NCBI GenBank assembly: GCA_963828255.1
Contig: CAWHDZ010000006.1
Coordinates: 1 to 49,292, forward strand
Length of the DNA: 49,292 bases
Direction: 5' to 3'
Source: an uncultured delta proteobacterium
GTDB lineage: Bacteria > Myxococcota > Myxococcia > Myxococcales > Anaeromyxobacteraceae
Shown here: positions 25,801-28,800 of the stretch, piece by piece
Numbering within the stretch: the stretch's first letter is position 1
How the letters are laid out: every line of letters starts with the position of its first letter
Made by a program: the position numbers

Positions 25801-28800
25801 CTGCGCGGCGCTGCGCTGCACCGACTCGATGGGGAGCTGCATGACGCTCCGGCCGGGCGGGGAGGGCGGGGCGGCGTTCTGGAGCAGTGCCGCCATTCCG
25901 CGGCCCAGGGCCGGGCGTCGGGTTCCGGGGGTGCTCATGCGTCGCTCCTCTCGCGGCGGGCCTCGCGCCGGGAAACTTCCCGCGCGAAGGCCAGGTAGCT
26001 CTGGCAGCCCTTGCTCGCGACGTCGTAGAGCAGGATGGGCTTGCCGTGGGACTGGCTCTCGGAGAGCCGGACGTTGCGGGGGATGACGGTCTCGAAGACC
26101 CGCCCGGCGAAGTGCCTCCGGATGTCCTCGGCCACCTGCGAGGCCAGGTTGTTCTGACCGAACATGGTGAGGAGGATCCCGTCCACCTCCAGGGCGGGGT
26201 TCAGGGAGCCCTTCACGAGCTCGACAGTGCGCAGGATGTCGGCCAGCCCCTCGAGGGCGAAGTACTCGCACTGCAGGGGGACGATGACGCCGTCGGAGGC
26301 GGCCAGCCCGTTGAGGGTGAGAAGGCCGAGGGACGGGGGGCAGTCGATGATGACGTGCTCGTAGTCGCAGGGCGGTGGCGAGCGCCTCGCGGAGCCGCGA
26401 CTCACGCCGCTCGGAGCCGGCCAGCTCGATCTCGGCACCGACCAGGTGTCGGCTGGCGGGGAGGAGGTCGAGGAAGCGCAGCTCGGTGCGCCGCACCACC
26501 TCGGCAACCGGGCGTCCGTCGAGCAGCACGTCGTAGACCGACCCCTCCACCTCGTCGCGGGCCACGCCCAGGGCGGAGCCGGCGTTTCCCTGCGGGTCGA
26601 GGTCCACGAGCAGCGTGCGGTGCTCGCCCGCGGCGAGCGACGCGGCGAGGTTCACGGCGGTCGTGGTCTTGCCGACGCCGCCCTTCTGGTTGGCGATGGT
26701 GACGGTCCTTCCCATGTCTCCTCTGGGGCTGCCGGGGGTGGGGCCGGGTTCTACCCCGACCCGGGGCGAGAATGCTCCCGGGATCTGACAGGGGGGCGGG
26801 GAGAGGCCGCGAATGTTCCACGTGGAACATCCCGGAGGGGAGGGGATCGGTGTTCCACGTGGAACACCGCCTGCGGGGGCCGCGCCTTCACCGCGCGCGC
26901 AGGCTCGCCACGGCCCGGGCCGCCCCGGACCGGGGAAGCGTGAAGCGGCGCAGGTTCACGACCTCGAGCCCGGCCTCCACCCCGGCCTGGTGCAACGCCT
27001 CCTCGTCCACCTCACGGCCCAGCGTGGCGAGCACCCGCCCGCCCGGGGCCAGGTAGCGCACCGCCAGCGGCAGCCAGCGCGCCGGCTCTGCGAAGGCGCG
27101 GCTCACCACCACCTCCGCCCCCGGCAACCCCTCGCGCCCCGGGTTCCCCTCCGCCCGCGCGGCCACCCCGCGGACCCGGAGGTCGAGCTCCGCCGCGACC
27201 GCCTTCACGAAGGCCACCTTCTTCGCGACCGTGTCGCAGCAGGTGACCTCGAGAGAGGGGAGGGCGATGGCGAGGGGGATCCCCGGAAGCCCCGCTCCGC
27301 TCCCGATGTCGAGCAGCGTGGCCGCGCCCGTCACCTCCGGCACGAGCGCGAGGCTGTCGACGAGGTGCTTCTCCGCGAGCTCGGCGGGGTCGGTGATGGC
27401 GGTGAGGTTCACCTTCCGGTTCCAGGCGATCAACCGATCGGCGTACCGCTCGAGCTTGGCCCGCATCGCCGGGTCGAGGTGCACCCCCAGCGCGCGGGCC
27501 CCCTCCTCGAGCACCTCGGCGAAAGGGTCGTCCACCGGCTACCCGTGGCGCCGCCCGATGGCGGCGTCCACCTCGAGCGCGTGGCTGGCCAGGAAGGCGA
27601 CCACCTCCTCGTCGTTGAGCCCGAGGTCGCGCAGCACGCCGTCGTAGACGAACTTGAATCCCTGCCGCTGCTCGTCGCCGGAGAGATCGAACGAGCGACG
27701 GAGGACCGCCGCGGCGAAGAGCTTCTCGTCCCGGGTCTTCTCGCGCGCCATGGTCAGCTCCCGGCCTGCGGGGTCTTCGGCTTCGCGCCGGGGATGACGA
27801 GCAGCTGGCGGAAGATCCCCTCGCCCTCGCTGCGCGTGGTGACACCGTCCACCTCGAGGAGCGCCAGGTGCACGGCGCGCCGGTCGCGCGCGCTCATGGG
27901 CGAGACGGCCAGCGCCTTGCCGGTGCGCAGCGCCACCGCGGCGAGGCGCAGCGCCATGGCGCGCACGGCCGGGTCGCCTCCCTCCGGGAAGCCGCCCACC
28001 TCCAGGTTGACCCACTTGCGCCCCTCGGCGCGCGGGTTCACCACCCGGTTCACCAGGTACTGCACCGCCTCGACGAGCGCGCCGGAGAGATCGACGCCGT
28101 TCCCCTCGCGGGGGGCGAGCGACACACCGATGGCCTCGGGCGTCTCCCGCACGGTCACGTCGACGGCGGCGCCGAGCCGGACGAACAGCCCGGTGCAGAA
28201 GGCGCGCGCCCGCTCCACCTTCTCCGGGGCCTCCCGGGGCGGGGGCACGTCCTCTCGCTCCACGTCGTGCATGGGCCCCTCCCCGGGCGTCACTTCCCCG
28301 CGGCGGCTGCCGCGGCCGTGGCGTTGCGGTGCTTGCGCATGATCCACCGCTGCTGCGCGATGGAGAGCAGGTTGTTCACGAAGATGTAGAGCGTCAGGCC
28401 CGCCGGCAGCTTCAGCATGATGAAGGTGAAGAAGGCGGGCATGAAGTAGAGCAGCATCTTGGCCTGCGCGTTGTCGGCCGGCTGCGGCGAGATCTTCTGC
28501 ATGACGAAGCTCGACGCGCCCATGGCCAGCGGCAGGATGTAGAAGGGGTCGTAGGCGGTCAGATCCTTCACCCACAGGAAGGGCTGCCGGTAGAGCTCCA
28601 CGGAGGTCTGCAGGGTGGCGTAGAGGGCCAGCCACACCGGCATCTGGAGCAAGAGCGGCAGGCACCCGCCCAATGGATTTACCTTGTGCTCCTGGTAGAG
28701 CTTCATGACCTCCTGGTTCATCTTCTCCTTGTCGTCCCCGAGCCTGGCCTTGATGGCGTCGACCTTGGGCTGGAGCGTCTTCATCTCCTGCATCGACATC

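Follow-up and report, generated by a model that had tools for sequence, protein, structure and literature searches.

The window, a stretch of 49,292 nucleotides, is contig C6 of a 4.3-Mb bin with 71% GC (genome G000) and belongs to the family Anaeromyxobacteraceae (referred to as f1). Its origin region carries, on the minus strand, the gene order rnpA-yidD-yidC-jag-ORF70-rsmG-parA-parB (Table 1). A preliminary description of this DNA had reported that jag, a 70-aa ORF and rsmG are joined directly, and the spacers on the minus strand indeed measure only 2 bases between jag and ORF70 and 3 bases between ORF70 and rsmG. The two identical palindromes are presumably parS sites, judged by the consensus. 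The same junction had also been described on two assembled copies, C6 and C10; the gene order on C10 is as in the window, but the identity to the window is only 85-89% and the spacers differ, and C10 most likely stems from a co-binned relative rather than duplicating the chromosome of the window (bin contamination 6.61%).

Table 1. Features of the origin-region locus in the window.
Feature	Position	Strand	Basis and remarks
yidC	28290..29948	-	Exceeds cut-offs of NCBIfam models for YidC N and C termini; upstream gene of ancestral block
jag/EloR-like RNA-binding protein, 172 aa, R3H domain	27754..28272	-	NF041568 E 1.5e-18 (below cut-off); Pfam R3H
ORF70, conserved four-helix hypothetical protein	27539..27751	-	Synteny; 379 homologues
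Three-base junction from ORF70 stop to rsmG start; site of mnmE-mnmG in relatives	27536..27538	-	Sequence; keeper gene order
rsmG (gidB), 16S rRNA m7G527 methyltransferase	26888..27535	-	TIGR00138 125 bits, cut-off 99.5
Two identical 16-base palindromes	26814-26829, 26851-26866	.	Within 26814..26866
parA, broken in assembly by one-base insertion near 26370	25935..26715	-	Alignment with L047

In relatives retaining both genes (keepers), the order is yidC-jag-ORF70-mnmE-mnmG-rsmG. In keepers of families f2, f4, and f6, and beyond the order in f10 and f12, which stand for further orders and classes within the phylum, ORF70 precedes mnmE, followed by mnmG and rsmG; some of these loci contain additional, inserted genes. 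ORF70 is therefore ancestral, and mnmE-mnmG was cut out from this block; its ancestral position had been missed in the preliminary description. In a record titled Vulgatibacter incomptus (L055), ORF70 is likewise followed by rsmG with mnmEG absent between them. The possibility that ORF70 is a remnant of the pair or a replacement for it was ruled out by its coexistence with full mnmE and mnmG in keepers. The predicted structure of the ORF70 product consists of four helices (pLDDT 84), for which no family was found in NCBIfam, Pfam, or Atlas and no fold match in the PDB at E<=0.001.

The loss of mnmE and mnmG in the family is real, as had been claimed. In G000, the MnmE model TIGR00450 reached a maximum of 106 bits against a cut-off of 252.6, the matches being the G-domain part of other GTPases, while nothing exceeded the cut-off of TIGR00136 for MnmG, a flavoprotein of ~620 aa; the top match was TrmFO, which scored 514.9 bits on TIGR00137 vs 41.6 on TIGR00136. 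Lineage-specific HMMs, for which 11 MnmE and 18 MnmG proteins from relatives were used, detected no remnant in the six frames of G000. Across the family, MnmG was found in 0/92 genomes, 54 of which reach 90% completeness with contamination no higher than 5% and five of which are single-contig, and the MnmE helical domain (PF12631) in 0/66; both enzymes were detected in nine of 14 controls, as reported. Among 14 loci from close relatives, 13 showed a clean junction, with rsmG within ~130 bases after ORF70; in the remaining one the contig ended before this point. Pseudogene remnants of mnmEG were looked for with the same HMMs at the junctions of 30 loci from MnmEG-less lineages and none was seen (best E 0.2).

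Framing this loss as a family-level event proved too narrow; as the accompanying caveat had it, the loss extends beyond the family. In an order-wide sample of 250 genomes plus G000 scored for MnmG and MnmE, neither was found in f1 (0/65 for each), f3 (0/5 for each), f7 (0/1), f8 (0/24), or f9 (0/1), while they occurred in f2 (1/1 and 1/1), f4 (12/13 and 13/13), f5 (2/3 and 1/3), and f6 (122/137 and 123/137), where 12 of the misses belong to genera g34 and g36 and where the unpublished genome G189, on which no conclusion depends, is counted as a keeper. Not scored as losses were G121, G150, and G228, in which only MnmE was found, G222, in which only MnmG was found, G276, an assembly of 560 contigs whose genus mates have both, and G301, in which YidC is missing too. 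Outside the order, MnmE was detected in 70 of 84 genomes, and 13 of the 14 misses fall in the distant family f14, the same 13 also being devoid of MnmG. A tree of 47 genomes was computed under LG+G4 from eight proteins (2251 columns), all markers coming from the origin region; four genomes were dropped for low occupancy, and f13, f14, f15, f22, f26, G276, and G278 were left out. On this tree the losers are f1, f7+f8, f9, G102 inside f5, f3, and g34+g36 inside f6, corresponding to six losses within the order; should f1 and f7+f8 be sister groups, the number falls to five.

MnmA, correctly described as kept, is intact on C1 of G000 (309.8 bits, cut-off 236.95) and was present in 80 of 80 genomes tested, including 50 without MnmEG hits. 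TadA, QueA, canonical Tgt, and a TrmL-like protein (below its cut-off) are encoded in G000 as well. The claim that all C34 isoacceptors are present holds for G000, but this is not special to losers. Every C34 isoacceptor is also found in the losers G097 (46 tRNAs) and G119, and an apparent lack of tRNA-Glu(CUC) in the latter was overturned when the gene was located at a contig end. Beyond these three genomes only Glu(CUC) was tested, and its pattern matched in 65 of 80 genomes, keepers included, among them 14 of 14 keepers of f6; it missed six of 12 family genomes, of which the two checked (G001 and G006) carry a D-arm variant gene. Since keepers possess the C34 set too, it is at most a precondition for loss.

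The reading that we favour, and regard as a whole as quite probable, combines deletion from an inherited block, no substitute, s2U34 or U34 without a C5 group, C34 redundancy, and loss by drift. Briefly, mnmE and mnmG were inherited in the block yidC-jag-ORF70-mnmE-mnmG-rsmG-parA-parB, and the genomic comparison shows that the pair was deleted from it in Anaeromyxobacteraceae and, in independent events, in four or five further lineages within the order. tRNA-Lys, -Glu, and -Gln would then carry s2U34, made via MnmA, without the C5 group, and tRNA-Arg(UCU), -Gly(UCC), and -Leu(UAA) either U34 or a 2'-O-methylated U provided by the TrmL-like protein. Because a C34 isoacceptor exists for each G-ending codon, the U34 tRNAs would need to read only A-ending codons, and this redundancy, common in a mostly GC-rich order, may make mnmEG dispensable and allow repeated loss by drift. 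The universal retention of MnmA fits the lethality of losing both U34 groups reported for Salmonella, in which loss of either one is viable (PMC5400242). The wobble base used for decoding in Anaeromyxobacteraceae and the related losers is thus probably a simpler one, as is assumed for actinomycetes.

No known substitute has entered these lineages, a result that covers Elp3 and MnmL/YhcC broadly and U32 proteins and SelU in a few genomes. Of the 34 radical SAM rows of G000, among which no Elp3 or MnmL label had been noticed, 30 were scanned against NCBIfam without finding either enzyme, in agreement with whole-genome negatives for Elp3 (TIGR01211, best 24 bits) and for Radical_SAM_C (PF16199), the domain common to the Elp3 and MnmL families. 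Radical_SAM_C was likewise found in 0/36 MnmEG-less genomes of the order. The same search returned Radical_SAM_C/Elp3 in 10 of 14 genomes of f14, where all five proteins scanned exceeded the Elp3 cut-off (431-490 vs 350) and are full-length Elp3, and was therefore able to detect a substitute where one is present. An HMM built from the f14 proteins gave no full-length match in G000. U32 proteins were found in none of four losers and were present in the keeper, whereas SelU was found in none of five genomes, a result that is uninformative because these include the keeper G137. CmoB and TrhO, searched by short motifs only (a weak test), had no match in G000.

The preliminary description overlooked an MnmC2-like domain (PF05430) that 11 of the 12 family genomes examined carry. 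On C38 of G000 it forms the C-terminal part of a 667-aa protein, over its Pfam cut-off, and is preceded by a second Tgt (PF01702; Tgt2), while the canonical tgt adjoins queA on C15. The MnmC2/MnmD model NF033855 gives this domain 73.1 bits, below the cut-off of 136, and in the PDB the methyltransferase part matches Aquifex MnmC2 best (3vyw, E 5.8e-15). With dN/dS values of 0.15-0.45 in five family pairs, the domain is under purifying selection despite the absence of MnmEG. Tgt2 scores 430 bits on TIGR00430 (cut-off 306.75) and, in an alignment to 1ozm, keeps the catalytic and guanine/preQ1-pocket residues D102, D156, Q203, G230, and D280 together with the zinc site. At the positions of Z. mobilis K52, R286, and R289, which we take to be anticodon-loop RNA contacts, the G000 Tgt2 has T, T, and W; neither R286 nor R289 is found in any of 30 Tgt2 rows, and both are kept in the canonical Tgt1 of G000.

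The Tgt2-methyltransferase module, fused or as neighbouring genes, also occurs in keepers, and it is missing in the loser lineages f3 (0/5), f7, f9, and g34 (0/4); it therefore cannot be a general substitute for MnmEG. Conservation of the fusion where MnmEG cannot supply nm5U favours another substrate, for example preQ1, and the most likely role of the MnmC2-like domain is to act on such a substrate jointly with the Tgt to which it is fused.

The principal alternative is that an undescribed, non-orthologous enzyme adds the C5 group to U34 in Anaeromyxobacteraceae, possibly with participation of Tgt2-MnmC2, which could methylate nm5U produced or salvaged independently of MnmEG. The intact, conserved methyltransferase domain (11/12 genomes, with the dN/dS range given above) would also be explained by a hidden nm5U route, which counts against the favoured reading. 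The contacts lost from Tgt2 and kept in the canonical enzyme, the pairing of MnmEG loss with another C5 enzyme, Elp3, in f14, and several G000 radical SAM proteins without assigned function point in the same direction. The patchy distribution of the module and its occurrence in keepers speak against this enzyme, as does the intact guanine/preQ1 pocket of Tgt2, and four of the 13 MnmEG-less f14 genomes dispense with Elp3 as well; overall, we consider such an enzyme improbable, though it is the strongest of the alternatives. More doubtful still is its specific form, in which Tgt2 with its altered RNA contacts and the MnmC2-like domain would constitute the core of an MnmEG-free route of aminomethyl type, in which the base at position 34 would first be exchanged and then N-methylated.

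Compared with a hidden enzyme, the mechanism implied by the preliminary description, namely that extreme GC3 and near-absent A-ending codons are the specific cause of the MnmEG loss in this family, fares less well and appears unlikely. The codon shares on which it was based (AAA 1.8%, CAA 3.6%, GAA 7.1%) are close to those obtained here from an ORF set filtered for high GC3 (2.1%, 4.8%, and 9.2% of their own boxes, with AGA at 1.0% of Arg and UUA at 0.1% of Leu). Family genomes do have a GC3 of 0.945-0.98 with 1-4% A-ending Lys/Gln/Glu codons, and no loser is among the three genomes whose GC3 lies below 0.55. However, in a comparison of 51 genomes, each represented by no fewer than 1200 orthologous codons, the share of A-ending Lys/Gln/Glu codons tracks GC3 alike in losers and keepers. 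Once GC3 is accounted for, the effect of loss is -0.03 +/- 0.14 logit units (n=51), or -0.08 +/- 0.17 without f14 (n=41), in statistics that ignore kinship. Keepers can be equally skewed, with A-ending shares of 0.3% in G357, 0.5% in G131, and 4.9% in G136, whereas the losers G097, G197, and G119 reach 41%, 28%, and 19%. High GC with strong codon skew is true of the family (71% GC) but not of G097, and codon skew was rejected as a signature of loss, being a GC effect; the rarity of A-ending codons, offered previously as part of the explanation, is not supported in that role.

These data also bear on the favoured reading, in which C34 redundancy permits deletion by drift. Redundancy is no predictor of loss, keepers sharing both the C34 tRNAs and the codon skew, and G097 lost the pair at a GC3 of 0.68 while using 41% A-ending codons. 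The evidence does not explain why equally GC-rich keepers with the same tRNAs retain mnmEG.

A single ancient loss, with the keepers regaining mnmEG by transfer, is very unlikely. Parsimony counts five changes without giving them a direction, and the mnmE and mnmG of G329 (f14), which have long branches, do lie outside the origin block and adjoin a full mnmC, in what looks like a regain. Yet in the order's keepers the pair occupies the ancestral site common to f10 and f12, and in FastTree phylogenies of keeper MnmG and MnmE the families f4, f5, f6, f10, and f12 each stay together, which favours vertical descent with repeated loss. Constraining the 22 loser rows to one clade, a group defined by gene state but tested once the tree was known, and without a mixture model, cost 1059 log-likelihood units (p-AU 0.000138), and a single loss was rejected. 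That the genes merely went unassembled or diverged beyond detection can practically be dismissed: the G000 bin does have indel errors and 6.6% contamination, assembly gaps cause single misses (as in G121, G150, G228, and G301), and tblastn recovered an MnmE in G107 that had escaped the Pfam model, but MnmG is absent from 92 genomes including five single-contig ones, the junction is closed inside contigs, and the lineage-specific HMMs find nothing in G000. Repeated deletion of an inherited pair thus remains the preferred account.

Outside the actinomycetes, MnmEG is regarded as nearly universal among bacteria. In the present case the loss is family-wide in free-living Gram-negative bacteria, has recurred in the same operon, and occurs beside close keepers. 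What raises it above plain gene loss, for which precedent exists in print, is this recurrence, the matched keepers, the contrast with Elp3, and the orphan methyltransferase. Matched loser/keeper pairs pose the question of whether the losers contain plain s2U34 or conceal a C5 enzyme that has so far escaped description. Anaeromyxobacter has been cultured and Myxococcus xanthus is tractable, which makes this question testable. Should the preferred reading be true, a published prediction would be confirmed with no new chemistry, whereas a Tgt2-MnmC2 route would add to MnmEG and Elp3 a third means of building a hypermodified wobble base.

That prediction, of such losses in GC-rich bacteria, was made by Diwan and Agashe in 2018, who described both genes as absent "only in Actinobacteria" and mentioned a loss in Leuconostoc (PMC6063277). 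Anaeromyxobacter and Myxococcus are never named in the main text of that paper, and the 19 minor losses of its supplementary figure may include Anaeromyxobacter. The losses described here resemble those of Actinobacteria and Leuconostoc as presented there in that both genes disappear together, the C34 (non-target) tRNAs are kept, the genomes are GC-rich, and drift is proposed; unlike them, the myxobacterial lineages are Gram-negative, show five or six losses within one order, and have close keepers. No literature joining Anaeromyxobacter with mnmE/mnmG or wobble tRNA modification was found in a search that left most subscription papers outside its reach. Likewise, no paper on mnmEG loss was found for Myxococcota, and the accessible text of PMC9976899, PMC12632869, and PMC12548931 holds nothing on it.

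A similar state has been described for Mycobacterium tuberculosis, in which s2U occurs without C5 enzymes (PMC10531406). For Streptomyces albidoflavus, mnm5s2U and cmnm5s2U were not confirmed in a 2025 re-analysis (PMC12772374), and xm5U in this species is cited in a 2026 review as detected and as a sign of undiscovered enzymes (PMC13602947), which speaks against the favoured reading. As in the available accounts of these two organisms, MnmA is present in Anaeromyxobacteraceae, homologues of the C5 enzymes are absent, and C34 tRNAs probably read the G-ending codons; the two actinomycetes were probed by tRNA-seq and LC-MS, while the s2U-only state proposed here is deduced from gene content, and Anaeromyxobacteraceae, unlike them, also keep the MnmC2-like domain. 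Dehalococcoides (PMC7663514), which is the only bacterium named for Elp3 in a review, represents together with f14 (full-length in 10/14) the use of Elp3 as an alternative C5 enzyme in bacteria. In contrast, Elp3 was found neither in Anaeromyxobacteraceae nor in the other MnmEG-less lineages of the order (0/36).

TGT-MnmC2 fusions with the same two domains as the G000 protein, PF01702 and PF05430, are listed by Jaroch et al. (bioRxiv 10.1101/2023.12.21.572861), whose survey comprised 968 genomes encoding MnmA, MnmG, and MnmE. A fusion persisting without MnmEG lies outside the scope of that survey, and the one described here is a second Tgt beside the canonical queA-tgt pair, with a methyltransferase below the MnmC2 cut-off. 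No literature was found on the role of the Tgt residues discussed above or on a second Tgt in Myxococcus or Verrucomicrobia. A catalogued fusion is conserved where the known route cannot make its textbook substrate, which points to a different one. N-methyl-preQ1 has been reported in phage DNA, where it is made by an unrelated enzyme (PMC10516641). In Atlas, the clusters of the Tgt-MnmC2 fusion belong mostly to Verrucomicrobiota or Pseudomonadota.

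Outside the order, a full-length Elp3, the alternative C5 enzyme for U34, is encoded in 10 of the 14 genomes of family f14 (loci L280-L289), and the U34-modifying enzymes MnmE and MnmG are missing from 13 of the 14. This family is a candidate case, outside Dehalococcoides, of bacteria in which Elp3 has taken the place of MnmEG. The sole f14 genome carrying both mnmE and mnmG, G329 (L153, L344), has the lowest GC among the f14 loci read; neither gene is in the origin block, mnmE has a full mnmC next to it, and both gene products form long branches. The pair was possibly regained via transfer, or may be contamination.

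Within the order, long stems subtend MnmE and MnmG of both keepers in family f5 (loci of this family: L084, L085, L174), and the third member has lost both enzymes and also ORF70, the 70-aa ORF between jag and rsmG. Selection on MnmEG may have been relaxed ahead of loss in f5. ORF70 itself is kept at the same site in several families of the phylum and has no match in Pfam, NCBIfam, Atlas or PDB. At the junction, jag was not matched in the f7 and f8 loci (L069-L073, L067), and some f8 loci carry a further unannotated ORF of ~76 aa between ORF70 and rsmG. In genus g36 and genome G110 (L075, L076, L064), rsmG is inverted relative to parA, and the junction was therefore rearranged after or with the loss.

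Despite the absence of MnmEG, the window genome retains a second Tgt that forms one protein with an MnmC2-like methyltransferase. Its Tgt part has the conserved arginine motif replaced; this architecture is already catalogued. Also retained, as in genomes G097 and G119, is tRNA-Arg(UCG) alongside tRNA-Arg(ACG) and TadA.

Coordinates of features in the window genome (G000)
Feature	Location	Strand	Remark
Tgt-MnmC2-like fusion	C38:79475-81478 (L146:6479-8479)	minus	second Tgt
tRNA-Arg(UCG)	C3:34130-34206; C34:142513-142589		
ORF70	window 27539-27751	minus	predicted four-helix protein (model)

Several features of this genome concern its assembly. The mnmA-mtaB region is duplicated between contigs C1 and C11, where C11 carries the second mnmA copy in split form, and parA bears a one-base insertion near window position 26370 relative to locus L047; the insertion and the split C11 copy are probably sequencing indels. 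Window positions 38114-49292 match the terminal part of contig C8 at 99.9% identity across 11 kb, an assembly overlap left unmerged.
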